Shown piece by piece: positions 1 through 16,422 of a stretch of 16,422 nt of DNA. The DNA is from a virus (Duplodnaviria > Heunggongvirae > Uroviricota > Caudoviricetes): IMG/VR virus record IMGVR_UViG_2877285697_000001, positions 1 to 16,422 of that record. The stretch is one strand, 5' to 3'. The notes beneath the pieces are model-generated. The model had not been told where the DNA came from, made no database searches, and was given only the letters and a program-made list of their open reading frames with translations. The position numbers and the translations under genes are program-made. Positions within the stretch are counted from its first letter, which is position 1, and each line of letters opens with the position of its first letter.

Positions 1-303
1 TTAACGCGTATTTTTCAGCGACTCCTGTGCAAAATACGCTGTTGCTTTTTTTAATATATCTCGCTCAAGGCGAGCTTCATTTAACGCCTTACGCAGTTGC
101 AGAATTTCAGATTCCAGTTCAGCCACCGTGCGGGAACCAGGAGTACCGAGCCCTTTTCTGGCGGCGGTAACCCATTGTCCTAAAGTGCCTTCAGGAAGGG
201 ATAATCGGGAAGCGCCTTCACTGATCGAAAGTTGATTTTCAAGAACCGTTCTGACAGCTTCGGCTTTGAACTCTTTAGAGTAACGTTGGGTTTTTCTGCT
301 CAT
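1..303 (-). CDS. IS600 OrfA, IS3-family transposase HTH subunit (100 aa)
   Basis: Six-frame ORF MSRKTQRYSKEFKAEAVRTVLENQLSISEGASRLS..., recognised as IS600/IS3-family OrfA; second copy at 4473-4775. Confidence 0.9.
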   Translation of the reverse strand: MSRKTQRYSKEFKAEAVRTVLENQLSISEGASRLSLPEGTLGQWVTAARKGLGTPGSRTVAELESEILQLRKALNEARLERDILKKATAYFAQESLKNTR

Positions 304-367
304 TATTAGCTCCTTCTGATGCCATTCTATTTCAGGAAGGAGTGTCCGTTAAACTCAGGCTACCTCA
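1..367 (-). mobile_element. IS600 (IS3 family) copy, cut by the window start; its orfA-proximal terminus ends at 367
   Basis: 351-367 AAACTCAGGCTACCTCA is the reverse complement of the left terminus TGAGGTAGCCTGAGTTT of the complete copy at 4409; orfA is identical apart from one residue. Confidence 0.85.
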
Positions 368-535
368 GGTGATATCACCACTATCCAGTCGTTACGCCAT
401 ACCTCCGATCTTGATACCGGAGAGATGTATGTCTTCCTGTGTAAGGTTGAAGCCTGGGCGATGAATATTGGTTGCCATCTGACTATTCCGCAGAGCTGCG
501 AGTTCCAGCAGCTCCGCGACAAGCAGGAGGCGTAA
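368..535 (+). pseudogene. 3' fragment of the lambdoid nin-region gene preceding ninE (ybcN-like by synteny only); 5' part removed by IS600
   Basis: Open frame runs from the IS600 terminus at 367 to TAA at 533-535, which overlaps the ninE ATG; no start codon inside the window. Confidence 0.45.
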
Positions 536-705
536 TGGCTACACCGCTTATTCGTGTCATGAACGGACACATCTACAGAGTACCAAATCGTCGTAAGCGT
601 AAGCCTGAGCTGAAGCCATCCGAAATACCAACACTGCTCGGATATACCGCCAGCCTGGTTGATAAAAAATGGTTGCGACTGGCAGCAAGGAGGAGTCATG
701 GCTGA
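535..705 (+). CDS. ninE: NinE (56 aa)
   Basis: [56 protein letters not shown]; ATG at 535 inside the longer track ORF 472-705; DLP12 ninE by recollection and synteny. Confidence 0.8.
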   Translation: MATPLIRVMNGHIYRVPNRRKRKPELKPSEIPTLLGYTASLVDKKWLRLAARRSHG

Positions 706-988
706 TTTGAGAAAAGCAGCGCGTGGTCGGGAATGCCAGGTAAGAATCCCTGGCGTATGTAATGGCAACCCTGAAACGTCTGTACTGGCACATATTTGGC
801 TGGCTGGATTGTGCGGCACCGGTATTAAACCGCCAGACCTGATTGCCACCATTGCATGTTCTGCCTGTCACGATGAGATCGACCGTCGCACGAATTTTGT
901 TGACGCTGGATATGCAAAAGAATGCGCGCTGGAAGGTCTGGCGAGAACACAGGTTATCTGGCTGAAAGAGGGGGTTATTAAGGCGTGA
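698..988 (+). CDS. ybcO: YbcO, DUF1364-type putative nuclease (96 aa)
   Basis: ATG at 698 preceded by AGGAGG (688-693); [30 protein letters not shown]...; overlaps ninE stop. Confidence 0.8.
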
Positions 989-1347
989 ATACCTACAGCA
1001 TCACACTACCCTGGCCGCCGAGCAATAACCGCTACTACCGCCATAATCGAGGGCGCACGCACATCAGCGCAGAAGGGCAGGCATACCGCGATAACGTCGC
1101 CCGAATCATTAAAGGCTCAATGCTGGATATCGGTCTGGCTATGCCTGTGAAAATCCGCATTGAGTGCTACATGCCGGATCGCCGTCGCCGTGACCTGGAT
1201 AATCTACAAAAAGCCTCTTTTGATGCACTCACCAAAGCAGGTTTCTGGCTGGATGATGCTCAGGTCGTTGATTACCGCGTTGTGAAGATGCCGGTTGTCA
1301 AAGGTGGAAAGCTGGAACTGACCATCACTGAACTGGGAGATGAATGA
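985..1347 (+). CDS. rusA: RusA Holliday-junction resolvase (120 aa), GTG start overlapping ybcO stop
   Basis: [26 protein letters not shown]...[14 protein letters not shown], near-identical to recalled E. coli K-12 RusA. Confidence 0.9.
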
Positions 1348-1484
1348 TGTTTGAGTTTTATATGGCAGAACTTCTTCGCCACCGCTGGATGCGCCTGCGC
1401 TTATATCGTTTCCCCAGTTCTGTTTTGACCGATTACCGAATACTGAGGAATTACGCCAAAACCCTGACAGGAGCAGGAGTATGA
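1344..1484 (+). CDS. ylcG: Small protein YlcG (46 aa), below the ORF-track size cutoff
   Basis: ATGATG at 1344 overlapping the rusA stop; translation [46 protein letters not shown], stop TGA 1482-1484. Confidence 0.55.
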
Positions 1485-1569
1485 AGTCAGAGATAACAAT
1501 CAACTAATACTGTTTTGTTGATTTTTGCTTGTAATTGGCGTTCTGGTCTGATTTTTGTGGAGTAAGTTG

Positions 1570-1953
1570 ATGCGTGATATTCAGATGGTTCTTGAGCGTT
1601 GGGGAGCGTGGGCGGCTAATAATCATGAAGATGTGACCTGGTCGTCCATTGCCGCCGGTTTTAAGGGATTAATTCCTTCAAAAGTAAAATCTCGCCCGCA
1701 ATGTTGTGACGATGACGCGATGATCATTTGCGGGTGCATGGCCCGTCTGAAAAAGAACAACAGCGATTTGCACGATTTATTAGTAGATTATTATGTAGTC
1801 GGTATGACATTCATGTCACTGGCAGGTAAGCATTGCTGCTCTGATGGTTATATCGGGAAAAGGTTACAGAAGGCTGAGGGCATAATTGAAGGGATGTTAA
1901 TGGCATTAGATATTCGGTTAGAGATGGATATCGTTGTTAATAACTCTAATTAA
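1570..1953 (+). CDS. quuD: Late-gene antiterminator Q (127 aa)
   Basis: [34 protein letters not shown]... from ATG 1570; the track ORF begins at an upstream TTG at 1555. Confidence 0.85.
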
Positions 1954-1969
1954 TATGCCAATTGTTTAC

Positions 1970-2004
1970 TAAAAATTATTAAAAATGGGGCGTTGCAACG
2001 CCCC
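1970..2004 (-). terminator. Candidate intrinsic terminator for the minus-strand porin transcript
   Basis: Perfect palindrome GGGGCGTTGCAACGCCCC (1987-2004); on the minus strand it is followed by a T-rich run (complement of 1970-1986). Confidence 0.4.
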
Positions 2005-2141
2005 CAAAAATAAAGGGTAATATATAACAGAAGGTTTATATAGTTAGAAGCAAGGTTGTGCTCCTAAAGGAAGTGGCTTGAGGGAGCCACTTATATGTTG
2101 GGGAGGCAAAGCCTCCCGCAACATATCTTTTAGTAATCAAA

Positions 2142-3224
2142 TTAGAACTGGTAAACCATACCTACAGCAACGATATCATCGGTAGCAACGCCAGATGCTT
2201 TCGTGAAATCGCTCTTATCAATCAGGTTGATTTTGTAATCAACAAAAGTGGACATATTTTTGTTGAAGTAATAGGTTGCACCTACATCAATATATTCAAC
2301 CAGGTCCTGATCACCCCACGCACCCAAGTCTTTTCCTTTAGATTGCAGGTAAGCAACGGACGGACGCAGACCGAAGTCGAACTGATATTGTGCAACTACT
2401 TCGAAGTTTTGTGCTTTGTTGGCAATATGGTTATTACCAAAAACAGTCATGTTCTGGGTTTCAGAATAGGTGGTAGCCAGATAGATGTTGTTCGCATCAT
2501 ATTTCAGACCAGCTGCCCATACTTCAGCATTTTGACCAGATGCATTCAGGCTGTTGTTACCGTAGATAACCTGATTATTAGTGCGGTCAGATTTAGCATA
2601 GGTTGCACCTACACCGAATCCTTCATACTCATAAGTAGTGGAGAAACCGAAACCATCACCATTAGCTTCAGTTACGTCAGTGCGGTCATTTTTACCCTGA
2701 TACTGAGCAGCAAAGTTCAGACCATCAACCAGACCAAAGAAGTCGTTGTTACGATAAGTTGCAACACCAGTGGTGCGACCAGTCATGAACACATCTGTTT
2801 GGCTCCAGGTATCGCCACCGAATTCTGGCAGAACGTCAGTCCACGCACCGATGTCATATGCTACACCGTAGTTACGGCCGTAATCGATTGAGCCGTAGTC
2901 CCCGAATTTCAGGCCTGCAAATGCAAGACGGGTTTTGTCTTTGGAGGAGCCTTGAGATTCAGCGCGGTTACCTTTGAATTCATATTCCCACTGACCGAAA
3001 CCAGTCAGTTGATCGTTGATTTGGGTTTCACCTTTGAAGCCAAGACGGGCATAAGTAGTATCACCATCATCTGCATCATTAGAGGAGAAGTAGTGCTTGG
3101 CATTAACTTTCCCGTACAGATCCAGCTTGTTACTGTCTTTATTATAAATTTCAGCTGCCTGAGCAGACATCGCCATCAGTACTGATGCAGCTACAGCAGA
3201 AATTGCCACTGTTAATTTTTTCAT
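2142..3224 (-). CDS. nmpC: Outer-membrane general porin NmpC (OmpC/OmpF/OmpD family), intact 360 aa with signal peptide
   Basis: [23 protein letters not shown] signal peptide, porin repeats, C-terminal ...VGMVYQF; sits between Q and holin as in DLP12. Confidence 0.9.
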
Positions 3225-3812
3225 CGTGAGCCCTTTTTTTTGAACTATTATTAAAAAATGATGTCACTGCGCGATAAATATTCATCTAATCAATGTGATT
3301 ATTTCAAGATGTAAGTTTTAGTTTCTCATTTAATTTGTGAAGTAGATCTCTATTTTTATCTGAACTTTTTCTATCGAAACCTATTTATGGCTCTTATTTG
3401 AACAAAAATAAACCTATTAGCTAATTTATATTAATGGCTGTTATTTATGGGGGTTCTATAATTCGGTGGTTTAATTTAAATCAACTAAAAATAACGCCGG
3501 AAATTATTTATTGGTTATTTGTTGAGGTTTTCTTATGTATTTGTGGTGGTGTTTTGAACACTCGGTAGCATTCTCATAAATATCATTCAGTGGTTTACGT
3601 ACGTAAAAAATTGGTTATGCTGTTAAGAGTGGTTACTTCGTCACGCAGCTTAAACCCGCCGTCGAGCTGGTTTTTCCATTTTTTGAGTCTCGATATTAGC
3701 TGATAACTCAATACCTGAGTTATTCACTGACTCCGAGTCTGTTACGTTTCTGCTTTTTTGCGATACGTTGTATTCCCTCAATTTACACCCGCTTTGTCTG
3801 CGAGGTGGGGTT

Positions 3813-4028
3813 ATGAAATCCATGGATAAGTTAACAACGGGTGTCGCCTATGGCACCTCAGCAGGTAGTGCCGGTTACTGGTTTTTACAGCTGCTCGATA
3901 AAGTCACGCCCTCACAGTGGGCAGCAATAGGTGTGCTGGGTAGCCTGGTATTTGGCCTGCTGACGTACCTGACAAACCTTTATTTCAAGATTAAAGAAGA
4001 TAAGCGCAAGGCTGCGAGAGGTGAATAA
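3813..4028 (+). CDS. essD: Holin EssD (71 aa)
   Basis: [71 protein letters not shown] from ATG 3813. Confidence 0.8.
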
Positions 4029-4408
4029 TGCCTCCATCATTACGAAAAGCCGTTGCTGCTGCTATTGGTGGCGGAGCAATTGCTATAGCATCAGTGTTAA
4101 TCACTGGCCCAGGTGGTAACGATGGTCTGGAAGGTGTCAGCTACATACCATACAAAGATATTGTTGGTGTATGGACTGTATGTCACGGGCATACAGGAAA
4201 AGACATCATGCTCGGTAAAACGTATACCAAAGCAGAATGCAAAGCCCTCCTGAATAAAGACCTTGCCACGGTCGCCAGACAAATTAACCCGTACATAAAA
4301 GTTGATATACCGGAAACAACGCGCGGCGCTCTTTACTCGTTCGTTTACAACGTGGGCGCTGGCAATTTCAGAACATCGACACTTCTTCGCAAAATAAACC
4401 AGGGCGAT
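4028..4408 (+). pseudogene. rrrD: Endolysin (lysozyme) RrrD, 3'-truncated by IS600 after residue 127
   Basis: [28 protein letters not shown]...; frame stops at TGA 4409-4411 formed by the IS600 terminus TGAGG; recalled K-12 RrrD is about 165 aa. Confidence 0.85.
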
Positions 4409-4472
4409 TGAGGTAGCCTGAGTTTAACGGACACTCCTTCCTGAAATAGAATGGCATCAGAAGGAGCTAATA

Positions 4473-4775
4473 ATGAGCAGAAAAACCCAACGTTACTCTA
4501 AAGAGTTCAAAGCCGAAGCTGTCAGAACGGTTCTTGAAAATCAACTTTCGATCAGTGAAGGCGCTTCCCGATTATCCCTTCCTGAAGGCACTTTAGGACA
4601 ATGGGTTACCGCCGCCAGAAAAGGGCTCGGTACTCCTGGTTCCCACACGGTGGCTGAACTGGAATCTGAAATTCTGCAACTGCGTAAGGCGTTAAATGAA
4701 GCTCGCCTTGAGCGAGATATATTAAAAAAAGCAACAGCGTATTTTGCACAGGAGTCGCTGAAAAATACGCGTTAA
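4473..4775 (+). CDS. IS600 OrfA
   Basis: 100-aa ORF; differs from the copy at 1-303 by one residue (H58 versus R58). Confidence 0.9.
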   Translation: MSRKTQRYSKEFKAEAVRTVLENQLSISEGASRLSLPEGTLGQWVTAARKGLGTPGSHTVAELESEILQLRKALNEARLERDILKKATAYFAQESLKNTR

Positions 4776-4810
4776 TCGAACAATGGCGACAACAATTTCC
4801 CATTGAAGCG

Positions 4811-5629
4811 ATGTGTCAGGTATTTGGTGTATCCAGGAGCGGTTATTACAACTGGGTACAGCATGAACCCTCAGACAGAAAACAAAGTGATGAGCGGCTA
4901 AAACTGGAGATTAAGGTGGCACATATCCGCACTCGCGAAACATATGGAACCCGGCGGCTCCAGACGGAGCTGGCAGAGAATGGCATCATCGTTGGTCGTG
5001 ACCGGCTGGCACGTCTTCGTAAGGAGCTAAGGCTACGCTGTAAGCAGAAACGCAAGTTCAGAGCGACTACGAACCCGAACCACAATCTGCCAGTTGCGCC
5101 AAATCTGCTGAACCAGACGTTCGCTCCTACAGCACCAAATCAGGTCTGGGTGGCGGACCTGACGTATGTTGCCACACAGGAGGGATGGTTGTACCTCGCT
5201 GGCATCAAAGATGTTTATACGTGCGAAATTGTCGGCTACGCCATGGGAGAGCGCATGACAAAAGAGCTGACAGGTAAAGCCCTGTTTATGGCGCTCAGGA
5301 GCCAGCGCCCACCTGCCGGGCTAATCCACCACTCTGATCGAGGTTCACAGTACTGCGCATACGATTACCGGGTCATACAGGAGCAGTCTGGTCTGAAAAC
5401 ATCAATGTCGCGTAAAGGTAACTGTTACGACAACGCTCCGATGGAAAGCTTCTGGGGAACGCTGAAAAATGAGAGCCTGAGCCACTATCGTTTTAATAAC
5501 CGGGATGAAGCCATCTCAGTAATACGGGAATACATTGAGATTTTCTACAATCGTCAGCGTCGTCACTCTCGTCTGGGGAATATCTCCCCGGCAGCCTTCA
5601 GGGAAAAATATCATCAGATGGCTGCTTAA
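4811..5629 (+). CDS. IS600 OrfB, DDE transposase catalytic subunit (made as OrfAB by -1 frameshift)
   Basis: 272-aa ORF with rve-type DDE motifs (...HSDRGSQY...NAPMESFWGTLK...), frame -1 relative to orfA. Confidence 0.9.
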   Translation: MCQVFGVSRSGYYNWVQHEPSDRKQSDERLKLEIKVAHIRTRETYGTRRLQTELAENGIIVGRDRLARLRKELRLRCKQKRKFRATTNPNHNLPVAPNLLNQTFAPTAPNQVWVADLTYVATQEGWLYLAGIKDVYTCEIVGYAMGERMTKELTGKALFMALRSQRPPAGLIHHSDRGSQYCAYDYRVIQEQSGLKTSMSRKGNCYDNAPMESFWGTLKNESLSHYRFNNRDEAISVIREYIEIFYNRQRRHSRLGNISPAAFREKYHQMAA

Positions 5630-5766
5630 AAAAAGAACAAATGGTAGTGTCCGCTATTGCCAGTACACCTCAACCGGTTACGACATCAACCAGGTCTTTG
5701 GTTTCATAACCGAGATATGTGTGTTTGAGAGCATCTTTGTAGTGGTCAACAAAAACTGGCCACCGA

Positions 5767-6915
<1,149 letters not shown>

Positions 6916-6971
6916 TATGGCACCTGTGTTGTTCTGAGGTGAGCATATCACCTCTGTTCAGGTGGCCAAAT

Positions 6972-7619
6972 TCAGTAAACCACTTCAACCCCTTCATACA
7001 ACATATCAAGACGCTCAACAATCAATCCTGTTGGAGGTTCCATTTTTAGAACGAGGGCAAACTCTCCTGGCCCACGTCGTATTGTTATACGCGGGCCGGT
7101 ACACTCCACATCCCAATTGTCTGATTTAGCTTTCCATTCATTTTCATCTATCAGTAAAGTCTCCTTACCAATAGAATTATAGAAAATTCCTGATAAAAGC
7201 ATCGGTCCATGTGGTATGGGTGAAGGTTTCACAGAAAGAATGGGTTGTTCGTTGACTACAATCAAATTTTGACAGTTATGAAACGTCACTCCTGCAAATT
7301 TTACTGTTATAGGCTCATTATGAAAATCAAACATTTCATTTGCAAAACCAGCCTGTAAGCACTTGGGATTTCTGTCAGCTATTTCCACTGTCTGTGCTGA
7401 AAGTCTACCACGAGCTCTTTTTTGATTGTATTGGGAGCAAAGAAGTGTCATTCCATTCGGATCATGTACTTTGGCATCAACGAAGTCAGGTTTAAAATGC
7501 TCATAATCATAAAATCCAAATCCACAAATTACACAGCCAAAGCCGCACCTTTGCCTTATCTGACGTTTTATTGTCTCAGGTATTCTTCTTGAGAGCCCGT
7601 GTTTATTAATATTGTCCAT
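6972..7619 (-). CDS. HNH-endonuclease-like domain protein (215 aa); the last five codons and stop lie inside the IS911 terminus
   Basis: N-terminal CGFGCVICG...YEHFKP...DPNGMTLLCSQYNQKRA resembles an HNH (His-Me finger) motif; C-terminal 140 aa unassigned; IS911 end at 6987 overlaps the 3' end. Confidence 0.5.
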   Translation of the reverse strand: MDNINKHGLSRRIPETIKRQIRQRCGFGCVICGFGFYDYEHFKPDFVDAKVHDPNGMTLLCSQYNQKRARGRLSAQTVEIADRNPKCLQAGFANEMFDFHNEPITVKFAGVTFHNCQNLIVVNEQPILSVKPSPIPHGPMLLSGIFYNSIGKETLLIDENEWKAKSDNWDVECTGPRITIRRGPGEFALVLKMEPPTGLIVERLDMLYEGVEVVY

Positions 7620-7749
7620 ATGGTTAGTACGCTATAAGTTTGTTTCTATAATTTTACCACAATAGATAAGTTTGTATCAGAAATCGCTATATGGAGTGAG
7701 CGGAATATTTATATTATTCATGCAATTGCTCTCCCGTACGCAGCCCGCA

Positions 7750-7775
7750 CTTCCGTCATCGCAGAATGACGGAAG
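7750..7775. other. Perfect 10-bp stem hairpin CTTCCGTCAT-cgcaga-ATGACGGAAG
   Basis: Exact inverted repeat 19 bp downstream of the stop of minus-strand gene 7794-8117; no T-run on either strand. Confidence 0.5.
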
Positions 7776-7793
7776 CCTTACTAACTGGCGCCT

Positions 7794-8117
7794 TTATTGA
7801 AACAGATTCTGAGGTAAATGCGGCAATACTCGACTCCACTTATCATCCTGCCACGGCTGAAGTTTTACATGTGCCGTTTCTCGGACGAGGATTGCTCGCG
7901 CTCTGTTGAGTATCTGGGGATATTCTTGCTCGATGGAAGTGAAGTGACCAGCTTCACCATGCTCCGCATCCTGAAGAAGATGAGTAACGTTCTGGTAGGC
8001 AATTAACATCACATTCCCTGCTCGCCATAACCAGGCGAGTGTGCAAAGTTCGTTATCAGTGAATTGTTTTGTGATTGGGGATTGTTGAACTGCTAGAACG
8101 AGAACGCCAGCATCCAT
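7794..8117 (-). CDS. Hypothetical protein (107 aa), no family recognised
   Basis: ATG (complement of 8115-8117) preceded by AGGGA Shine-Dalgarno on the minus strand; co-directional with flanking genes. Confidence 0.45.
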   Translation of the reverse strand: MDAGVLVLAVQQSPITKQFTDNELCTLAWLWRAGNVMLIAYQNVTHLLQDAEHGEAGHFTSIEQEYPQILNRARAILVRETAHVKLQPWQDDKWSRVLPHLPQNLFQ

Positions 8118-8228
8118 TGGCAGTCCCTATAGTAAAACCATAGCTCAGGACGCTTCGTTCAGGATAGATAATTTTATTGTACTTACCTAACTTTCTTACT
8201 ATAGCACGGTTGAAAAAGTGATTATTAC

Positions 8229-8832
8229 TCAAAAATAAACCTCACCATCAACCATATATTTGAGAGTACTTATCGCCTGCTGGGCGGATATTGTTTTCAT
8301 TAAAGGATAGTGTTTAAAAACAATGCCATTCATAAAATAGATATCACAGGTTTTATTATCTGTATTGATTATGATTTTTTCGAATGTTTTATAGGCAAGT
8401 GTACGACATAGCTCTCGCCCATTTTTACTGGTTAAGTCAATAGCATGAAAATCACCAAGTGAGCTCACCGCTTTACTCTTCAAAGTTTTTAATGATACAG
8501 AAGCCCTTCGTAATTCCTTATCTAATACTCTGATTTTTTCTGCTATAGCGGTAACTTCAGGCGCAACAGATAATGCAGCAATTAAATTATTAATTTTCAT
8601 ATGGAGCTCAATAATTTTCAACTCTAAAGTTTCATTAGCATCTTTCTTGTTTTCAACTGGTTGGATTTTACTACAATTAAAAAGCAACTCATTAATGATA
8701 TTATAATCAACCAAATCTCTCTTTATTGATGGCCTGCCACATCGATGCAGTCTTCTCATCGGACAAACATAATAGCCATGCAAACTTCCAGATACCGCCT
8801 GAACAATCATGGTATTACCACAAGCCTCGCAC
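8229..8832 (-). pseudogene. C-terminal fragment of a large serine recombinase (zinc beta-ribbon plus coiled-coil), N-terminal catalytic part replaced by IS1
   Basis: PCEACGNTMIVQAVSGSLHGYYVCPMRRLHRCGRP matches the recombinase zinc-ribbon pattern C-x2-C...YYxC...C, followed by coiled-coil-like LELKIIELHMKINNLIAAL...; frame is open into the IS1 end at 8833 with no ATG. Confidence 0.55.
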
Positions 8833-8887
8833 GGTAATGCTGCCAACTTACTGATTTAGTGTATGATGGTGATTTTAAGGTGCTTGC

Positions 8888-9163
8888 GTGGCTTCCATTT
8901 CCATCAGATGTCCTTCCTGCTCCGCTACTGAAGGCGTGGTGCGTAACGGCAAAAGCACTGCCGGACATCAGCGCTATCTCTGCTCTCATTGCCGTAAAAC
9001 ATGGCAACTACAGTTCACTTACACCGCCTCTCAGCCCGGTACGCACCAGAAAATCATTGATATGGCCATGAATGGCGTCGGATGTCGCGCCAGTGCACGC
9101 ATTATGGGCGTTGGCCTCAACACGGTTTTACGTCACTTAAAAAACTCAGGCCGCAGTCGGTAA
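8888..9163 (+). CDS. insA: IS1 InsA (91 aa)
   Basis: [66 protein letters not shown]... Confidence 0.95.
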
Positions 9164-9585
9164 CCTCGCGCATACAACCGGGCAGTGATGTGATTGTCTG
9201 CGCTGAAATGGACGAACAGTGGGGCTACGTCGGTGCTAAATCACGTCAGCGCTGGCTGTTTTACGCGTATGACAGGATACGGAGGACGGTTGTGGCGCAC
9301 GTCTTCGGTGAACGCACTCTGGCCACACTGGAGCGTCTTCTGAGCCTGCTGTCGGCCTTTGAGGTCGTGGTATGGATGACGGATGGCTGGCCGCTGTATG
9401 AATCACGCCTGAAGGGAAAGCTGCACGTTATCAGCAAGCGTTACACTCAGCGCATTGAGCGACATAATCTGAATCTGAGACAACATCTGGCAAGGCTGGG
9501 ACGGAAGTCACTGTCGTTCTCAAAATCGGTGGAGCTGCATGACAAGGTCATCGGGCATTATCTGAACATAAAACACTATCAGTAA
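9082..9585 (+). CDS. insB: IS1 InsB reading frame (expressed as InsAB' by frameshift)
   Basis: 167-aa ORF ...[65 protein letters not shown]. Confidence 0.9.
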
Positions 9586-9694
9586 GTTGGAGTCATTACC
9601 GAGAACGATTTATCACCGCAGTCGGGCTAAATCCGCTAGTCTGTTGGTATGTAAGTGGTTGCATAGTCATTGCCTTATCAGTTAACGCCGCAGT

Positions 9695-9922
9695 TTAGGC
9701 GGCAGAATTACTCGCGTTAAACAATGGTGCGAGGTCGGGACGAATATCTGCTGGTTTAATCTTTCCACCAGTGGCTGAGACAATTTTCATTACATAGCGG
9801 GCATCAATTCCGCCACCGTGTAGCCAACGCCAAACTGTGGGTTGGGCTACACCGCATAGATCTGCCAGTCGTTTTTGACTACCTGTAATACTGATTGCGA
9901 GTTGAATGGTTTGATTTGTCAT
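9695..9922 (-). CDS. Cro-like HTH regulator (75 aa)
   Basis: MTNQTIQLAISITGSQKRLADLCGVAQPTVWRWLHGG... HTH; ATG (complement of 9920-9922) with AGGA 9 nt upstream; divergent from the repressor gene. Confidence 0.7.
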   Translation of the reverse strand: MTNQTIQLAISITGSQKRLADLCGVAQPTVWRWLHGGGIDARYVMKIVSATGGKIKPADIRPDLAPLFNASNSAA

Positions 9923-10032
9923 TATCAATTCCTGTTGGTATTGCAATGAATGAATAATAGCAATGCGTATTAATCCAAGCAATAGCAAAACGTGTTTTGA
10001 CCATCAATACGCAAGCGTATAAATTAAAACTT
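9923..10032. promoter_or_regulatory. Divergent immunity control region (pR-like and pRM-like promoters with operator dyads)
   Basis: Minus-strand promoter: -35 TTGCTT (complement of 9977-9982), 17-bp spacer, -10 TATTAT (complement of 9954-9959). Dyads AATAGCAATGCGTATT (9956-9971) and ATACGCAAGCGTAT (10007-10020). TATAAA (10017-10022) lies 10 nt before the cI ATG. Confidence 0.45.
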
Positions 10033-10725
10033 ATGAAAAAAGAAACTCTTGCTGATCGCTTAAACCTAGCGATGGAACAATCTGGAATGTCTCAAGGCGC
10101 TCTTGCAAAGGCGTCTGGCGTAGCTCAACCCACAATCTGGAGACTGACAAGCGGCAACGCGCGCGGCTCAACAAAAATTGTTGAAATAGCTAATGCATTG
10201 GGGGTTCGAACAGAATGGCTCTCATCAGGCATAGGCCCGATGAGAAATGACGGTCAACAATCAGGGAAGCCTGCTGTCAGCCATTCAAAATACTTCAAGA
10301 TTGACGTTCTTGATATAGAAGTCAGTGCCGGGCCGGGTGTAATCAACCGTGAGTTTGTAGAAGTTCTACGCTCGGTTGAGTACTCGTTTGACGATGCTCG
10401 TCACATGTTCGATGGCAGGAAGGCGGAAAATATCCGCATCATTAACGTGCGTGGTGACAGCATGTCAGGAACGATCGAACCAGGTGATCTTCTGTTCGTT
10501 GATATCACGGTTAAATCTTTCGACGGTGATGGTATCTATGCGTTTCTGTATGACGACACAGCCCATGTAAAGCGCCTGCAAATGATGAAGGATAAGCTGC
10601 TGGTTATCTCTGATAACAAGAGCTACTCACCGTGGGACCCGATCGAGAAAGACGAGATGAACCGGGTATTCATCTTCGGGAAAGTCATCGGAAGCATGCC
10701 GCAGACGTATAGGAAGCATGGGTAG
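10033..10725 (+). CDS. CI-like prophage repressor, N-terminal HTH plus C-terminal S24 (LexA-like) autopeptidase (230 aa)
   Basis: MKKETLADRLNLAMEQSGMSQGALAKASGVAQPTIWRL... HTH; C-terminal ...RGDSMSGTIEPGDLLFVD...HVKRLQ... Ser/Lys dyad motifs; ATG 10033 chosen inside track ORF 9997-10725. Confidence 0.85.
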   Translation: MKKETLADRLNLAMEQSGMSQGALAKASGVAQPTIWRLTSGNARGSTKIVEIANALGVRTEWLSSGIGPMRNDGQQSGKPAVSHSKYFKIDVLDIEVSAGPGVINREFVEVLRSVEYSFDDARHMFDGRKAENIRIINVRGDSMSGTIEPGDLLFVDITVKSFDGDGIYAFLYDDTAHVKRLQMMKDKLLVISDNKSYSPWDPIEKDEMNRVFIFGKVIGSMPQTYRKHG

Positions 10726-10836
10726 TGAAGGACGTGTCAACTCTATTTTGTAAGCTATCCAGACTCACAGTTGCAGATCGACGAGTAACTTACATACAGC
10801 ACAAAAAAACAATATGCGCGTGCTTTTAGACTAGAC

Positions 10837-10851
10837 TTACCATAATGGTAA
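10837..10851. promoter_or_regulatory. Perfect 15-bp palindrome TTACCATAATGGTAA overlapping the first ATG of the toxin gene
   Basis: Exact dyad symmetry (7-1-7) read directly from the sequence. Confidence 0.35.
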
Positions 10852-11255
10852 CAAGTATGATTCTTAGCAGATATGTGGGAACTCCTCCCCGTGATGGCGA
10901 GGACAGAAAGATTCAAGGTGGTCCGCTTTATTTAGATATCATTGATTTGATTGATGAATGTGACACACTGCCTTGGACCAGACGGTGTATCAGGGATGTT
11001 CAATCGCTTTCTTTAGATGCAGATGACATCAAATCTATGGTGATAAAAGCAGTCACTAAAGGGAGATTTCTAGGTTCAGAATGGTGTCAAGGCAGTAAAC
11101 CAGGTGTATGGGCAGCTTGTGATGCTTATAGCTTTGAGCACTCATTTTGGTGCCAAGCTATGCATAAAGAACTTAATAACGAGTTCTACATTAAATTTTT
11201 TGTAAACATTACTGGCAATGTAGTGCTTACAGTATCTCTTCATCTCTCTAATTGA
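10845..11255 (+). CDS. MqsR-like toxin (putative mRNA interferase); start may instead be ATG 10857
   Basis: Blocks shared with recalled E. coli MqsR: ...TRR...LSLD, DDIKSM (MqsR SDFYKSM), EFYIKFFVNITGNVVLTVSL (MqsR QVYLKITVIHDVLIVSF); toxin gene precedes antitoxin as in mqsRA. Confidence 0.6.
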   Translation: MVTSMILSRYVGTPPRDGEDRKIQGGPLYLDIIDLIDECDTLPWTRRCIRDVQSLSLDADDIKSMVIKAVTKGRFLGSEWCQGSKPGVWAACDAYSFEHSFWCQAMHKELNNEFYIKFFVNITGNVVLTVSLHLSN

Positions 11256-11279
11256 GTGATGATAAATGAGGATTTTTAT

Positions 11280-11867
11280 ATGAGAAACAACAACATATGT
11301 CCAGTTTGTGGTGTAGGTCATCTCACCGTGGAGATGGAGTATGATGATGTTACTTATAAAGGGGAAACAAAAAATCTCCCAATAAGGTTTTCTGTGTGTG
11401 ATCAATGTGGTTCGGAAACTGCCACACCAGTCGATTTACGAGAAAACAAACGAATTTTCAATGAATACAAAAAGTCTATCGATGGACTTTTAACAGGAAA
11501 AGAATTAAAAAAAATTAGAACTGAAGTATGGATGATAACCCAGCAAAAGGCATCCTCTATATTTGGTGGGGGGCCTAAGGCATTTTCCAAGTATGAATCT
11601 GATGATGTCATTCAATCAGAAGCAATGGATAAACTGATGCGTTTAGCAGCAGAAGTTCCTGATGCATTCAAAAGGTTACGGGAATTATCTGGCGAAATCA
11701 AAGTTGAAAGAACAGTCTCATCATCTAAATCTTTACCTATATGGAAATCTGAAGCAAAAGCACAATTTGAAAACGATGATCAGGGATTTGACAGCAAATC
11801 ACCAGCCCAAACAAAAATGAATCAAACATCAATAAAGATAAAAACTGTTGCTAAGCGGGTAGCATGA
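11280..11867 (+). CDS. MqsA-like antitoxin (zinc-ribbon plus XRE-type HTH) with about 60-aa C-terminal extension (195 aa)
   Basis: MRNNNICPVCGVGHL...CDQCGSE zinc ribbon; LTGKELKKIRTEVWMITQQKASSIFGGGPKAFSKYE matches the recalled MqsA HTH block (IFGGGVNAFSRYE); GAGGA 7 nt upstream of ATG 11280; canonical MqsA is about 131 aa. Confidence 0.75.
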   Translation: MRNNNICPVCGVGHLTVEMEYDDVTYKGETKNLPIRFSVCDQCGSETATPVDLRENKRIFNEYKKSIDGLLTGKELKKIRTEVWMITQQKASSIFGGGPKAFSKYESDDVIQSEAMDKLMRLAAEVPDAFKRLRELSGEIKVERTVSSSKSLPIWKSEAKAQFENDDQGFDSKSPAQTKMNQTSIKIKTVAKRVA

Positions 11868-12367
11868 TGAATGAACTTCTTAGATCAGCAATAGACGCAT
11901 TATCAATAATGCATATCAATATCAGAGAATCTAACTTTGCTTTTTCTGAAGGGTATAATAGCTTTAACTTCAACAGCATAAATAAGCAAACACAATCATT
12001 TCGTAAGATAAAAAAAATCGAAGCTATTGAATTAGTAAGTGACGATGACTCATTAAAAAATGAGCTATATTACTCTTTTCACTACTCAGTTGGGCTTAGA
12101 TTTATTGCAAAATCCGAAGAAACATCTAAAGACGAAAATGATGTTGATACAATTTTTTCTATAGAAGCAATTTTTGAGGCGATATATCGCTCAAAGAGAG
12201 AATTATCTAAAGAAGAGTTAGAAGAATTTGCTAAGCAAAATGTAGGTTTTAATGTATGGCCTTTTTGGCGAGAGTATGTTCAAAACAGCACATCCAGAAT
12301 GGGAATTACTACAATAGCTATACCATTCTTTAAATTCAATAAATCAGACATACCTTCATTAGATTAA
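11864..12367 (+). CDS. SecB-like chaperone (167 aa), translationally coupled to the antitoxin (ATGA overlap)
   Basis: N-terminal LSIMHINIRESNFAFS versus SecB FQIQRIYTKDISFEAP; C-terminal TIFSIEAIF and NVWPFWREYVQNSTSRMG...IPFFKF versus SecB GGIFSIAGIE and NILFPYARECITSMVSRG...APVNF (E. coli SecB from recollection). Confidence 0.55.
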   Translation: MMNELLRSAIDALSIMHINIRESNFAFSEGYNSFNFNSINKQTQSFRKIKKIEAIELVSDDDSLKNELYYSFHYSVGLRFIAKSEETSKDENDVDTIFSIEAIFEAIYRSKRELSKEELEEFAKQNVGFNVWPFWREYVQNSTSRMGITTIAIPFFKFNKSDIPSLD

Positions 12368-12381
12368 ATTCAAATATAACT

Positions 12382-12408
12382 CCCGGCTACCGTGCCGGGT
12401 TTTCTTTT
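12382..12408 (+). terminator. Rho-independent terminator ending the repressor/TAC transcription unit
   Basis: CCCGGC-taccgt-GCCGGG stem-loop followed by TTTTCTTTT, 15 nt after the chaperone stop. Confidence 0.65.
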
Positions 12409-12549
12409 GTCCCCTCCCCTCATCACACACCGTTCAAAAAACCACCACGACCTCACTTCAGTTATCGCTATGCGATGCAAGTCACAAAATTAATTCTTTT
12501 TGCTATCAAACATTTAATATCAAAACACATCAACTAATAGCAGTGAGTA

Positions 12550-12578
12550 TTGGTATCACCAATAGCAATAGCTATTAT
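12550..12578 (+). promoter_or_regulatory. pL-like promoter with embedded operator dyads, reading toward gam-bet-exo
   Basis: -35 TTGGTA (12550-12555), 17-bp spacer, -10 TATTAT (12573-12578); dyads TTGGT-atc-ACCAA (12550-12562) and AATAGC-aata-GCTATT (12561-12576); the latter resembles the oR dyad at 9956-9971 and overlaps the -10 in the same way. Confidence 0.45.
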
Positions 12579-12771
12579 CACCATATCGCAACAACACAAC
12601 GATACGGCAACCACCTGATTCACCGTTGCGATGACCGCTTAGATCCGCAGCTTGAATTTCAGCAGGCTTCGGGGAGTGCGAGGGATGAAACGGACGCGTG
12701 AACGTCGGTGTGACCAGCTGAAATCAACTCAACATTTCATACCTTAGTCGCTTCAACGAGGCGGCTTAGTT

Positions 12772-13062
12772 ATGACAACCGGCGGCCATCCACCGCCTGA
12801 ATACGCGCAGAAGTCTTTATATGTTCAGCAGCCCAGCTTACGGGCAGGAGTTTTTATGGTTCATCAACATTACGGAACGCAGACCGTTAATCGCGGTGCG
12901 GTCATGCCAGGAATGCTGGTCAAACGCAAAGATGGTACCTGGACTGCATCAGCTAATTTACGCGGACGACTTTATCTGCATCGCGGCATTGAGCGCACTT
13001 ATACCCGTGACTTGCTCGTGGAAGTTTTTCTCGACGGACGCGGCAACGGTCTGAATCACTAA
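12772..13062 (+). CDS. Hypothetical protein in the kil position (start uncertain: 12772, 12856 or 12904)
   Basis: ORF ends at TAA 13060-13062 inside the TCACTAA motif that I recall as the lambda kil stop overlapping the long gam leader; protein unlike lambda Kil. Confidence 0.4.
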   Translation: MTTGGHPPPEYAQKSLYVQQPSLRAGVFMVHQHYGTQTVNRGAVMPGMLVKRKDGTWTASANLRGRLYLHRGIERTYTRDLLVEVFLDGRGNGLNH

Positions 13063-13137
13063 TCCCCTTTCCTGTTTTCCGAATCAGCCTGGCATTCCGC
13101 GGGCGATTTTTTCACAGCCATTTTCAGGAGTTCAGCC

Positions 13138-13434
13138 ATGAACGCTTATTACATTCAGGATCGTCTTGAGGCTCAGAGCTGGGCGCGTCACTACCAGCAG
13201 ATCGCCCGTGAAGAGAAAGAGGCAGAACTGGCAGACGACATGGAAAAAGGCCTGCCCCAGCACCTGTTTGAATCGCTATGCATCGATCATTTGCAACGCC
13301 ACGGGGCCAGCAAAAAAGCCATTACCCGTGCGTTTGATGACGATGTTGAGTTTCAGGAGCGCATGGCAGAACACATCCGGTACATGGTTGAAACCATTGC
13401 TCACCATCAGGTTGATATTGATTCAGAGGTATAA
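13138..13434 (+). CDS. gam: Gam (short form GamS, 98 aa), RecBCD inhibitor
   Basis: [56 protein letters not shown]..., near-identical to recalled lambda Gam; AGGAG 7 nt upstream. Confidence 0.9.
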
Positions 13435-13439
13435 AACGG

Positions 13440-14225
13440 ATGAGTACAGCACTCGCAACGCTGGCTGGGAAGCTGGCTGAACGTGTCGGCATGGATTCTG
13501 TCGACCCACAGGAACTGATCACCACTCTTCGCCAGACGGCATTTAAAGGCGATGCCAGCGATGCGCAGTTCATCGCATTGTTGATCGTCGCCAACCAGTA
13601 CGGCCTTAATCCGTGGACGAAAGAAATTTACGCCTTCCCTGACAAGCAGAACGGCATCGTTCCGGTGGTGGGCGTTGATGGCTGGTCCCGTATCATCAAT
13701 GAAAACCAGCAGTTTGATGGCATGGACTTTGAGCAGGACAATGAATCCTGCACATGCCGGATTTACCGCAAGGACCGTAATCATCCGATCTGCGTTACCG
13801 AGTGGATGGATGAATGCCGCCGCGAACCATTCAAAACCCGCGAAGGCAGAGAAATCACGGGGCCGTGGCAGTCGCATCCCAAACGGATGTTACGTCATAA
13901 AGCCATGATTCAGTGTGCCCGTCTGGCCTTCGGATTTGCTGGTATCTATGACAAGGATGAAGCCGAGCGCATTGTCGAAAATACCGCATACACTGCAGAA
14001 CGTCAGCCGGAACGCGACATCACTCCGGTTAACGATGAAACCATGCAGGAGATTAACACTCTGCTGATTGCCCTGGATAAAAAATGGGATGACGACTTAT
14101 TGCCGCTCTGTTCCCAGATATTTCGCCGCGACATTCGCGCATCGTCAGAACTGACACAGGTCGAAGCAGTGAAAGCTCTCGGATTCCTGAAACAGAAAGC
14201 CACTGAGCAGAAGGTGGCAGCATGA
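13440..14225 (+). CDS. bet: Bet (Red-beta) single-strand annealing protein (261 aa)
   Basis: [72 protein letters not shown]..., near-identical to recalled lambda Bet. Confidence 0.95.
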
Positions 14226-14902
14226 CACCGGACATTATCCTGCAGCGTACCGGGATCGATGTGAGAGCTGTCGAACAGGGGGATGATGCGTGGCACAAAT
14301 TACGGCTCGGCGTCATCACCGCTTCAGAAGTTCACAACGTGATAGCAAAACCCCGCTCCGGAAAGAAGTGGCCTGACATGAAAATGTCCTACTTCCACAC
14401 CCTGCTTGCCGAGGTTTGCACCGGTGTGGCTCCGGAAGTTAACGCTAAAGCACTGGCCTGGGGAAAACAGTACGAGAACGACGCCAGAACCCTGTTTGAG
14501 TTCACTTCCGGCGTGAATGTTATTGAATCCCCGATCATCTATCGCGACGAAAGTATGCGCACCGCCTGCTCTCCCGATGGTTTATGCAGTGATGGCAACG
14601 GCCTTGAACTGAAATGCCCGTTTACCTCCCGGGATTTCATGAAGTTCCGGCTCGGTGGTTTCGAGGCCATAAAATCGGCTTACATGGCCCAGGTGCAGTA
14701 CAGCATGTGGGTGGCACGAAAAGATGCCTGGTACTTTGCCAACTATGACCCGCGGATGAAGCGTGAAGGCCTGCATTATGTCGTGATTGAGCAGGATGAA
14801 AAGTACATGGCGAGTTTTGACGAGATGGTGCCGGAGTTCATCGAAAAAATGGACGAGGCACTGGCTGAAATTGGTTTTGTATTTGGGGAGCAATGGCGAT
14901 GA
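14222..14902 (+). CDS. exo: Exo (Red-alpha) 5'-3' exonuclease (226 aa)
   Basis: [68 protein letters not shown]...; ATGA overlap with bet as in lambda. Confidence 0.95.
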
Positions 14903-15081
14903 AGCATCCTCACGATAATATCCGGGTAGGCGCGATCACTTTCGTCTACTCCGTTACAAAGCGAGGCTGGGTATTTCCCGGCCTTTCTGTTACCCGAAAT
15001 CCCCTGAAAGCACAGCGGCTGGCTGAGGAGATAAATAATAAACGGGGAGCTGTATGCACAAAGCATCTCCTGTTGAGTTAA
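14893..15081 (+). CDS. Lambda orf60a-like small protein (62 aa)
   Basis: [33 protein letters not shown]..., position immediately after exo as in lambda. Confidence 0.65.
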
Positions 15082-15245
15082 GAACGAGCATTGAGATGGC
15101 ACATAGCCTCGCTCAAATTGGAGTCAGGTTTGTGCCAATACCAGTAGAAACAGACGAAGAATTTCATACGTTAGCCGCATCCCTTTCACAAAAGCTGGAA
15201 ATGATGGTGGCGAAAGCAGAAGCAGATGAGAGAGACCAGGTATGA
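15054..15245 (+). CDS. Lambda orf63-like small protein (63 aa)
   Basis: Track [66 protein letters not shown]; position and size as lambda orf63. Confidence 0.55.
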   Translation: MHKASPVELRTSIEMAHSLAQIGVRFVPIPVETDEEFHTLAASLSQKLEMMVAKAEADERDQV

Positions 15246-15321
15246 CAACCACTGAATGCATTTTTCTGGTAGCGGGCTTCATATTCTGTGTGCTTATGCT
15301 TGCCGACATGGGACTTGTTCA

Positions 15322-15537
15322 ATGACACCTCAGCAAGAAAACGCCCTTCGCAGTATTGCCCGTCAGGCTAATTCTGAAATCAAAAAAGCCAGACAGCAGT
15401 TTCCGGATAAAAACGTCGATGACATTTGCCGTAGCGTACTGAAGAAGCACCGCGAAACGGTAACGCTGATGGGATTCACACCGACTCATTTAAGCCTGGC
15501 GATCGGCATGTTAAACGGCGTCTTTAAGGAACGGTGA
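15322..15537 (+). CDS. Lambda orf61-like small protein
   Basis: MTPQQENALRSIARQANSEIKKARQQFPDKNVDDICRSVLKKHRETVTLMGFTPTHLSLAIGMLNGVFKER from ATG 15322 inside track ORF 15256-15537. Confidence 0.55.
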   Translation: MTPQQENALRSIARQANSEIKKARQQFPDKNVDDICRSVLKKHRETVTLMGFTPTHLSLAIGMLNGVFKER

Positions 15538-15559
15538 GCATGAAAAACAAAATCATCAT

Positions 15560-15583
15560 GGAGCTACAGGCTCCTTTTTTATT
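15560..15583 (+). terminator. Candidate intrinsic terminator after the orf61-like gene
   Basis: GGAGC-tacag-GCTCC followed by TTTTTTATT. Confidence 0.45.
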
Positions 15584-15635
15584 ATTCGCATTCACCCTCA
15601 AGCGTATTAACCAACAATTCAGGGATTAATGAAAG

Positions 15636-15669
15636 ATGGCAGACATCATTGATTCAGCATCAGAAATTG
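15636..15669 (+). pseudogene. 5' stub (MADIIDSASEI...) of a gene interrupted by IS1; by position possibly the lambda ea22 equivalent
   Basis: ATG at 15636, 11 codons, then the frame enters the IS1 left end at 15670. Confidence 0.3.
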
Positions 15670-15724
15670 GGTAATGCTGCCAACTTACTGATTTAGTGTA
15701 TGATGGTGATTTTAAGGTGCTTGC

Positions 15725-16000
15725 GTGGCTTCCATTTCCATCAGATGTCCTTCCTGCTCCGCTACTGAAGGCGTGGTGCGTAACGGCAAAAGCACTGCCG
15801 GACATCAGCGCTATCTCTGCTCTCATTGCCGTAAAACATGGCAACTACAGTTCACTTACACCGCCTCTCAGCCCGGTACGCACCAGAAAATCATTGATAT
15901 GGCCATGAATGGCGTCGGATGTCGCGCCAGTGCACGCATTATGGGCGTTGGCCTCAACACGGTTTTACGTCACTTAAAAAACTCAGGCCGCAGTCGGTAA
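15725..16000 (+). CDS. insA: IS1 InsA
   Basis: Identical 91-aa translation to 8888-9163. Confidence 0.95.
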
Positions 16001-16422
16001 CCTCGCGCATACAACCGGGCAGTGATGTGATTGTCTGCGCTGAAATGGACGAACAGTGGGGCTACGTCGGTGCTAAATCACGTCAGCGCTGGCTGTTTTA
16101 CGCGTATGACAGGATACGGAGGACGGTTGTGGCGCACGTCTTCGGTGAACGCACTCTGGCCACACTGGAGCGTCTTCTGAGCCTGCTGTCGGCCTTTGAG
16201 GTCGTGGTATGGATGACGGATGGCTGGCCGCTGTATGAATCACGCCTGAAGGGAAAGCTGCACGTTATCAGCAAGCGTTACACTCAGCGCATTGAGCGAC
16301 ATAATCTGAATCTGAGACAACATCTGGCAAGGCTGGGACGGAAGTCACTGTCGTTCTCAAAATCGGTGGAGCTGCATGACAAGGTCATCGGGCATTATCT
16401 GAACATAAAACACTATCAGTAA
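15919..16422 (+). CDS. insB: IS1 InsB reading frame
   Basis: Identical 167-aa translation to 9082-9585; stop TAA at the window end. Confidence 0.9.

Follow-up and report, generated by a model that had tools for sequence, protein, structure and literature searches.

The founding toxin-antitoxin-chaperone (TAC) system is HigBA1-SecB(TA) of Mycobacterium tuberculosis (Rv1955-1957; Bordes 2011/2016; Guillet 2019, PMC6377645; PDB 5mtw), a chromosomal stress-response locus and not a prophage defence locus. Its antitoxin, HigA1, possesses a C-terminal chaperone-addiction (ChAD) segment with a tryptophan anchor (EVPTW108HRLSSY114RG) and the terminus ...VEVA, and its chaperone has the SecB fold. Here we describe a candidate ChAD segment at the end of an MqsA-type antitoxin encoded in the tailed-virus record IMGVR_UViG_2877285697_000001 of IMG/VR (Caudoviricetes), which was analysed over its positions 1 to 16,422 (the window hereafter) and is part of an Escherichia coli lambdoid prophage. 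The window also carries a SecB-fold chaperone. It differs from the mycobacterial locus in that the toxin and antitoxin of the latter belong to the HigB and HigA families, in that the two chaperones are only ~14% identical, and in the motif around the tryptophan, W-x5-Y in M. tuberculosis and W-x7-F here.

A TAC with homologous toxin, antitoxin and chaperone in the same gene order is that of Vibrio cholerae RC385 (Bordes 2016, PMC5105189). The ChAD of its MqsA comprises residues 136-176, and swapping this tail was shown to transfer chaperone dependence and to re-target it; the primers place the boundary between LDKLMLD and AGV and the end at ELEACYV, the sequence itself being given in Supplementary Fig. 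1 of that paper. The V. cholerae ChAD is 41 residues long compared with 59-61 for the tail in the window, which has an acidic insert with a second phenylalanine (F170) and ends in -KRVA instead of -EACYV. In the available text of the paper the V. cholerae TAC is not placed in a prophage immunity region.

Among the E. coli systems, MqsRAC of C496_10 (Vassallo 2022, PMC9519451; Fernandez-Garcia 2023, PMC10783111) agrees with the window in species and in having an MqsR-like toxin, an MqsA-family antitoxin and a SecB-like chaperone. According to the accessible portions of these reports MqsR is neutralised only by MqsA plus MqsC, and the protection that the system gives against T2 is lost when extra MqsC is supplied; the same portions neither delimit nor mutate the ChAD of its antitoxin. 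HigBAC of E. coli NT1F31 (Mets 2024, bioRxiv 10.1101/2024.02.24.581848) occupies the same variable locus downstream of cI in a lambdoid prophage; the aromatic residues of its ChAD slot into pockets of the chaperone tetramer, and its trigger is the lambda tail protein gpV, which competes for the chaperone. It differs from the module in the window in that HigA is 218 residues long, with a 96-residue ChAD that contains four aromatic motifs, ends in Leu-Pro and is ClpXP-independent, and in being directed against siphoviruses. CmdTAC (PD-T4-9; Vassallo 2022/2024, PMC9519451, PMC11618068) is likewise a prophage-borne TAC defence, and CmdC is a weak homologue of the chaperone considered here; its antitoxin ends in Ala-Ala and is degraded by ClpXP once a capsid protein displaces the chaperone (PMC11618068). 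Its toxin, an mRNA ADP-ribosyltransferase, and its antitoxin are unrelated to those of the window. In HigBAC and CmdTAC alike a phage structural protein competes with the ChAD for the chaperone (bioRxiv 10.1101/2024.02.24.581848; PMC11618068). Lastly, the two-gene MqsRA locus of E. coli K-12 (PDB 3hi2) has neither tail nor chaperone, and the sequence similarity between its toxin and that of the window is undetectable by hhalign.

Our reading, to which we assign a probability of roughly 85%, is that residues ~137-195 of the window antitoxin are the ChAD tail of an MqsRAC-type TAC situated in the slot downstream of cI, equivalent to that of rexAB, in a lambdoid prophage; its functional steps would follow those of the systems described above. 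The proposal that the tail is a chaperone-addiction segment had been made in a first-pass annotation of this DNA. The idea restates the published TAC model, for a type of system already validated in E. coli, and the finding is correct and already known; with the chaperone-addiction principle and E. coli MqsRAC defence both published, it opens no new question. The module of the window is probably the C496_10 system itself, because a search of 5,426 complete E. coli genomes turned up a single MqsRAC-type locus (in 18 of them, at ≥99% identity, or 99.5-99.8% in a search with 1751 bp; no more distant variant was detected among the 5,426) and the nearest variants lie in other genera, namely Citrobacter, Klebsiella and Enterobacter. 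If it is not that system, it is a close member of the described kind. What the analysis contributes is a corrected annotation for a widespread E. coli prophage module, the genes of which are now labelled 'hypothetical protein', 'MqsA family antitoxin' and 'protein-export chaperone SecB', as an MqsRAC-type TAC defence in a slot expressed in the lysogen; a small set of residues singled out within the tail (W155, F163, the terminal IKIKTVAKRVA and Val-Ala); and ~110 loci in which tail and chaperone travel as one unit across MqsA, HigA-type and HicB antitoxins.

The antitoxin and its C-terminal extension

The features on which the argument rests are the following.

10845..11255, + strand: toxin gene, encoding a putative divergent MqsR-fold RNase of 136 residues
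11280..11867, + strand: antitoxin gene, 195 residues
11280..11681, + strand: antitoxin core, an MqsA domain (residues 1-134) with zinc ribbon and helix-turn-helix (HTH), delimited by PF15731, TIGR03830 and BLASTP against K-12 MqsA
11682..11864, + strand: C-terminal extension, residues 135-195, the candidate ChAD segment
11742..11768, + strand: W155-x7-F163 motif, LPIWKSEAKAQF, proposed as the primary chaperone-binding short linear motif
11826..11864, + strand: terminal amphipathic stretch TSIKIKTVAKRVA with a Val-Ala-COOH end, a putative second chaperone contact (added beta-strand) and ClpXP-type degron
11864..12367, + strand: gene for the SecB-like TAC chaperone ('MqsC'), 167 residues, or 166 if the start is at 11867

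The three genes are co-oriented and tightly packed, with 24 nt between toxin and antitoxin. The antitoxin ATG at 11280 is preceded by GAGGA 8 nt upstream, and the same start is used by the prokaryotic genome annotation pipeline (PGAP) in identical E. coli genomes. The resulting open reading frame (ORF) of 195 residues compares with 131 for K-12 MqsA (NC_000913), the disparity on which the first-pass annotation had built. The matches to Pfam MqsA_antitoxin (PF15731; 64 bits, cut-off 30) and TIGR03830 (113.4 bits, cut-off 61.8) cover only residues ~7-134, and residues 3-131 of the K-12 protein align to residues 7-134 (BLASTP, E = 6e-12). Since the K-12 protein stops where residue 134 lies in the alignment, the extra part consists of residues 135-195, that is 61 residues at 11682-11864. 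The earlier estimate of some 60 extra residues after the HTH was sound, and the peptide then quoted (EIKVERTV...KTVAKRVA, 57 residues) is an exact substring, residues 139-195; the start then given, 11685, is codon 136. By alignment to the mapped V. cholerae boundary the functional segment starts at about S137/G138. The core has the two CxxC(G) zinc-ribbon motifs and the C-terminal HTH of the MqsA family; among 20 homologues C7, C10, C40 and C43 do not vary, and the HTH block FGGGPKAFSKYE varies little or not at all. Judged by these motifs and by scores above the curated cut-offs, the protein is a bona fide MqsA, with a C-terminal extension that its two-gene relatives lack.

The antitoxin stop codon (TGA, 11865-11867) overlaps the chaperone ATG at 11864 by 4 nt (ATGA, 11864-11867), as had been noted before. 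Close chaperone homologues start at the position of the second methionine (ATG 11867), and in the Klebsiella michiganensis orthologue the overlap is 1 nt (TAATG); the actual overlap may therefore be 1 nt (TGATG) instead of 4. The antitoxin and chaperone genes are translationally coupled under either start, and an overlap between them is among the TAC criteria listed by Sala et al.

The extension is no accident of ORF calling: 12 enterobacterial homologues have one of similar length, as do 65 of the 81 loci surveyed in the wider family. For an artefact of annotation or assembly without biological meaning, such as a read-through, a frameshift or a wrong stop codon, no evidence was found. The exact module proteins, including the identical 195-residue antitoxin, are recorded on at least 1000 contigs; the module occurs in 18 complete E. 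coli genomes and also in a phage that has been sequenced; the length of the tail and its anchor residues are conserved across genera; and the ratio of nonsynonymous to synonymous substitution rates (dN/dS) is below 1. These conservation data refute an artefact, the probability of which we regard as negligible. When the E. coli genes are compared with their K. michiganensis orthologues, dN/dS comes to 0.07 in both the antitoxin core and the chaperone, 0.14 in the toxin and 0.36 in the tail; these values are rough, synonymous sites being near saturation.

One homologue in our collection (P0101), together with two of the survey loci (L050 and L052), is essentially the V. cholerae RC385 MqsA of Bordes 2016, and the window antitoxin is ~45-46% identical to it; the toxin and chaperone are homologous to those of Vibrio-type loci at E ~1e-31 and E ~1e-13, respectively. 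The tail can be aligned with the V. cholerae ChAD from a conserved glycine (G138) onwards. Both segments contain W-x7-F, as WKSEAKAQF in the window and WKNVAVVDF in the V. cholerae type, as do the six closest homologues, and both have a later basic and hydrophobic stretch, SIKIKTVAKRVA here and RKTRIVASHE there. Alignment with known TAC antitoxins had been suggested in the first-pass annotation as a check on its proposal, and the outcome agrees with it.

Within the tail the conserved positions are few. Across the 12 enterobacterial homologues identity to the window antitoxin is 59-86% in the core and 18-52% in the tail, and in the latter S137, G138, E143, W155, E158, V194 and A195 are kept in at least 10 of the 12 (W155 and A195 in all, V194 in 11). 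Disorder-promoting residues make up 38 of the 61. Such a combination is typical of disordered regions that carry short linear motifs. A tryptophan is the key contact in the ChADs of M. tuberculosis and of HigA, and W155-x7-F163 is a candidate for the primary chaperone-binding motif. The terminal stretch aligns with RKTRIVASHE and RPxLRVVSSS in other tails associated with homologues of the window chaperone.

Association of the tail with the third gene

Relatives of the antitoxin were collected from one genome per species, giving 80 loci, which with the E. coli locus make 81 that were classified. Two were uninformative, one (L048) lying at a contig edge and the other (L057) having an extension of 315 residues. 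The remaining 79 fall as follows.

53 loci, tail of 43-72 residues: downstream, a homologue of the SecB-like gene of the window (clade A)
9 loci, tail of 60-71 residues: downstream, a second clade, with sub-threshold matches to Pfam SecB (E = 2e-4 to 0.012; 5 of the 9 scanned)
3 loci, tail of 54-58 residues: downstream, a third type, an unclassified ORF of ~140 residues
14 loci, tail of 4-31 residues: downstream, no third gene in the 0.3-3 kb of sequence available

A third gene is thus present at all 65 complete loci with a tail of 43-72 residues and at none of the 14 with a short tail. On a tree of the MqsA core the short-tail loci fall into ~10 separate lineages, and some of their cores are 100% identical to those of tailed neighbours (L069 and L050/L052; L024 and L020). 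A long tail without a third gene was seen at none of the 79 informative loci, a state which the addiction model predicts to be toxic. The ~140-residue third ORFs (L055:3540-3962, L073:2265-2699 and L081:3551-4003) follow tails of 54-58 residues that lack tryptophan, and show neither a Pfam match nor similarity to the SecB-like clades; in them tailed MqsA antitoxins may have a partner of another kind.

An alternative is that the tail gives the antitoxin a further means of binding the toxin, of dimerising or of binding DNA, and that its synteny with the third gene is coincidental. Disordered C-terminal regions that bind the toxin, often by wrapping around it, are common in type II antitoxins, and the toxin of the window has an N-terminal extension of ~35 residues relative to MqsR which might need an extra surface on its partner. 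In the MqsR-MqsA complex, on the other hand, it is the N-terminal zinc domain of MqsA that binds the toxin (MqsR with the MqsA N-domain, PDB 3hi2), and this domain is intact here. Moreover, the members with tails of 4-31 residues keep the same toxin, its N-terminal region included, which makes the tail dispensable for that toxin; and the distribution of the third gene, 65/65 against 0/14 loci, would be left unexplained. We consider this explanation very improbable.

The kind of tail also goes with the chaperone clade more than with the antitoxin core. With the similarity of the cores controlled for, tails resemble one another in step with their third genes (partial rank r = 0.45, Mantel p = 0.001), and loci with similar cores and different chaperone clades (for example L012 and L015) have unrelated tails. 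A tryptophan lies within the first 32 residues of the tail at 48 of 53 clade-A loci, compared with 1 of 9 and 0 of 3 in the other two groups. On viral contigs of IMG/VR relatives of the window chaperone were found at 32 loci, the antitoxins of which are MqsA (13), HTH-Xre of the HigA type (12), HicB (2), or partial or unresolved (5; L106, L108 and L115-L117). In the HTH-Xre antitoxins paired with these chaperones the HTH ends near residue 90 of ~150. The tails of the non-MqsA antitoxins read ...GWQDVVNELNGF...SNVIVRAQKEFWRKVA, ...LRVVGGKSYSPAEAA or ...EPEVCYG; those of the HTH-Xre and HicB antitoxins contain tryptophan and end in -KVA, -AA or -CYG. Like tails on three antitoxin families, each with the chaperone, are expected if tail and chaperone form a portable unit, as was stated by Bordes et al. 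2016 (PMC5105189). Extension and chaperone co-occur, are specific to each other and move together.

The same data bear on the possibility that the tail is only a degron or instability tag, a ClpXP substrate by virtue of Val-Ala or a disordered substrate of Lon, which the SecB-like protein does not bind, the third gene serving to fold the toxin or to sense phage. The terminal Val-Ala is indeed conserved, and an alanine terminus is common among clade-A tails (29/53); furthermore, CmdA reportedly helps to fold its toxin, and the loss of TAC antitoxins can be driven by proteases. A degron, however, needs few residues, and the tail measures 43-72 residues at every clade-A locus and keeps its internal tryptophan motif; its type covaries with the chaperone clade and moves with the chaperone between antitoxin families; and in the homologous V. 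cholerae system a tail swap re-targets the chaperone. A mere degron is very improbable in our view, if a little less so than an extra binding element.

The assignment of the tail as a ChAD is thus favoured by comparison, through its alignment to a mapped ChAD, its co-occurrence with the third gene and the tracking of the chaperone clade.

The chaperone, the toxin and a proposed mechanism

The third protein has a SecB fold according to structure prediction. An AlphaFold2 model built from 11 homologues (mean predicted local distance difference test score 81.4) has four long antiparallel strands and a helix at either terminus. Foldseek ranks first among PDB structures 5mtw_C, the M. tuberculosis chaperone with ChAD peptide (E = 1.2e-7, TM-score up to 0.76), followed by the SecB proteins of Haemophilus influenzae and E. 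coli (1ozb, 1fx3, 1qyn; E = 4e-7 to 3e-5). At the sequence level the best PDB match is also Rv1957 (5mtw), with E = 0.011, or 9.5e-4 with a profile of 46 sequences, and in PADLOC the protein is a weak match to PD-T4-9_C, or CmdC (E = 7e-4). The roles of the ChAD-contact residues of the M. tuberculosis chaperone were described by Guillet 2019 (PMC6377645). In the HMMER alignment to 5mtw the conserved mycobacterial pair E143/R151 is matched by E137/R145, two residues that do not vary in the family of the window chaperone, and several of the ChAD-contact positions are conservatively matched (L108/I103, A153/G147, L154/I148, L157/I151), a marginal alignment which can serve as a hint only.

The toxin is encoded upstream of the MqsA antitoxin and has a fold of the MqsR/RelE superfamily. 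Its sequence gives no Pfam match to the MqsR model (PF15723), only 8 of 51 members of its family reach E ≤ 0.01 against that model, and hhalign of the family against K-12 MqsR returns a probability of 0.4%. PADLOC has no models for MqsR or MqsA, and K-12 MqsA itself matches generic HTH models only, so that PADLOC does not decide on MqsRAC membership. PGAP places the toxin start at 10857 (132 residues); the family N-terminus, MV(N/T)xx..SRY, the 136-residue homologues and a palindrome described below indicate 10845 (136 residues).

Taken together, the module has every TAC hallmark that can be read from sequence: the order toxin, antitoxin and SecB-like chaperone with the last two genes overlapping, an MqsA antitoxin with an added tail, and a chaperone of SecB fold that accompanies that tail.

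By analogy with the characterised systems, the MqsR-fold RNase would be neutralised by the zinc-ribbon and HTH core of MqsA. The disordered tail would make the antitoxin unstable, through aggregation and/or through ClpXP acting on Val-Ala, unless held by a SecB-like tetramer produced from the coupled downstream gene; the chaperone probably grips it via W155 (W-x7-F163) and the terminal IKIKTVAKRVA strand. On infection a newly made phage protein would compete for the chaperone, the tail would be released and the antitoxin lost, and the freed toxin would cleave mRNA and halt the infected cell. The chaperone would then be the regulatory or sensing switch, as the first-pass annotation had it, and this agrees with the published work on E. 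coli MqsRAC, HigBAC and CmdTAC. With regard to the protease, Mets et al. 2024 (bioRxiv 10.1101/2024.02.24.581848) give the Val-Ala end of M. tuberculosis HigA1 as a ClpXP degron, and the Ala-Ala of CmdA likewise; HigA1 ends in ...VRQVEVA and the window tail in ...KRVA.

Several points weigh against the ChAD reading. The chaperone matches Pfam SecB (PF02556) at E = 0.008 and 16.5 bits, below the 26-bit cut-off, and NCBIfam SecB at E = 0.013 and 15.3 bits, far under the 143 required. Because of these scores, and because the gene lies in a prophage toxin-antitoxin operon and not in a yibN-grxC-secB-gpsA context, it is not a canonical SecB, and the 'protein-export chaperone SecB' of PGAP and RefSeq is an over-annotation. 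The tail by itself has no Pfam match. ChAD sequences are too divergent for a statistical match, similarity to the M. tuberculosis ChAD being limited to P-x-W and the terminal VA. Part of the co-occurrence of tail and third gene could stem from one deletion across the overlapping junction, which would remove both. One relative of 448 residues (L057:2980-4329), with 315 residues added at its C-terminus, is not followed by a SecB-like gene; here an antitoxin core may be fused to another domain. We infer from comparison which tail residues bind the chaperone, and a role for ClpXP at Val-Ala is taken from other systems, among which HigA of NT1F31 is ClpXP-independent. Finally, Vassallo 2022, Fernandez-Garcia 2023, Bordes 2016 and Sala 2012, main articles and supplements alike, yielded neither a sequence nor a primer nor an accession for C496_10 MqsRAC, so that the identity of the two systems is probable only, and no paper was found that mentions the RefSeq accessions of the module proteins.

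The ChAD reading might be carried one step further. The tail could act as a two-site decoy, W155-x7-F163 being one site and the terminal strand, with a Val-Ala degron hidden by the chaperone, the other, and so imitate the stretch of a T-even phage protein by which the chaperone detects infection. We consider this doubtful; if it were true, the trigger of MqsRAC could be predicted from the ChAD.

The palindrome and the prophage context

Further features of the region are listed below.

10033..10725, + strand: cI-like prophage repressor (Pfam Peptidase_S24, E = 1.5e-18; HTH_3, E = 1.5e-6), with the start used by PGAP, from the E. coli locus (L001)
10837..10851: perfect 15-bp palindrome TTACCAT-A-ATGGTAA (TTACCATAATGGTAA), the right arm of which contains the toxin start codon, ATG 10845
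12382..12408, + strand: terminator-like hairpin with T-run, of the intrinsic-terminator pattern (CCCGGCTACCGTGCCGGG then TTTTCTTTTG), 15 nt past the chaperone stop

Of 85 loci from very diverse bacteria, 75 have the palindrome, as TTACCAT-N-ATGGTAA, without a single mismatch, and in each of them it lies where the toxin gene begins, at its 5' end. The proteins of these loci are only 40-50% identical to those of the window, and the DNA further upstream is not conserved; two loci (L015 and L068) have two copies ~67 nt apart. It leaves no space for a Shine-Dalgarno sequence. It probably serves the HTH antitoxin as operator and/or forms a hairpin that covers the start codon; conceivably it couples the loss of antitoxin directly to new synthesis of toxin. 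It differs from the palindrome of K-12 mqsRA, TAACCT-N3-AGGTTA. The residues K100 and K104 of the antitoxin (window 11577-11591) align with N97 and R101 of K-12 MqsA in the BLASTP alignment; the latter contact bases of the DNA, and their replacement fits an operator other than the K-12 palindrome. A 9-nt inverted repeat at 10749-10794 was considered as an operator and dropped, since it is not conserved in the K. michiganensis orthologue. A scan for sigma-70 promoters gave fewer hits than shuffled sequence, none of them convincing upstream of the toxin.

The TAC genes lie directly downstream of cI, the slot which in lambda is occupied by rexAB. The hairpin at 12382..12408 would close the TAC operon, and 3' of it follow kil, gam (Pfam Gam, E = 3e-65), bet (RecT) and exo (YqaJ). 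The identical antitoxin is found in the same position, between cI and kil/gam/bet, in Escherichia phage PhiR70_1 (PV340577.1, 5239-6761), where the counterpart of the repressor is annotated as cI and all three TAC genes as 'hypothetical protein'. The K. michiganensis orthologue, with an antitoxin 71% identical, belongs to a different lambdoid prophage and there, too, comes directly after an S24 repressor.

Two copies of IS1 in direct orientation (8833-~9600 and 15670-16422; 6837 nt from start to start, with the 300 nt compared identical) bracket cro, cI, the TAC, kil, gam, bet and exo in a layout like that of a composite transposon; the copy beside cro is missing from the 18 complete genomes that carry the module, for example PI7. 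A perfect inverted repeat of 367 nt (1-367 and 4409-4775) represents two IS3-family copies (orfA, HTH_Tnp_1; orfB, rve) flanking the Q antiterminator, a porin gene (Porin_1, E = 3e-153) and a phage lysozyme gene seemingly shortened by an insertion sequence. A further rve ORF is located at 5921-6586. With its many insertion sequences the prophage is heavily decayed; the TAC is nonetheless intact.

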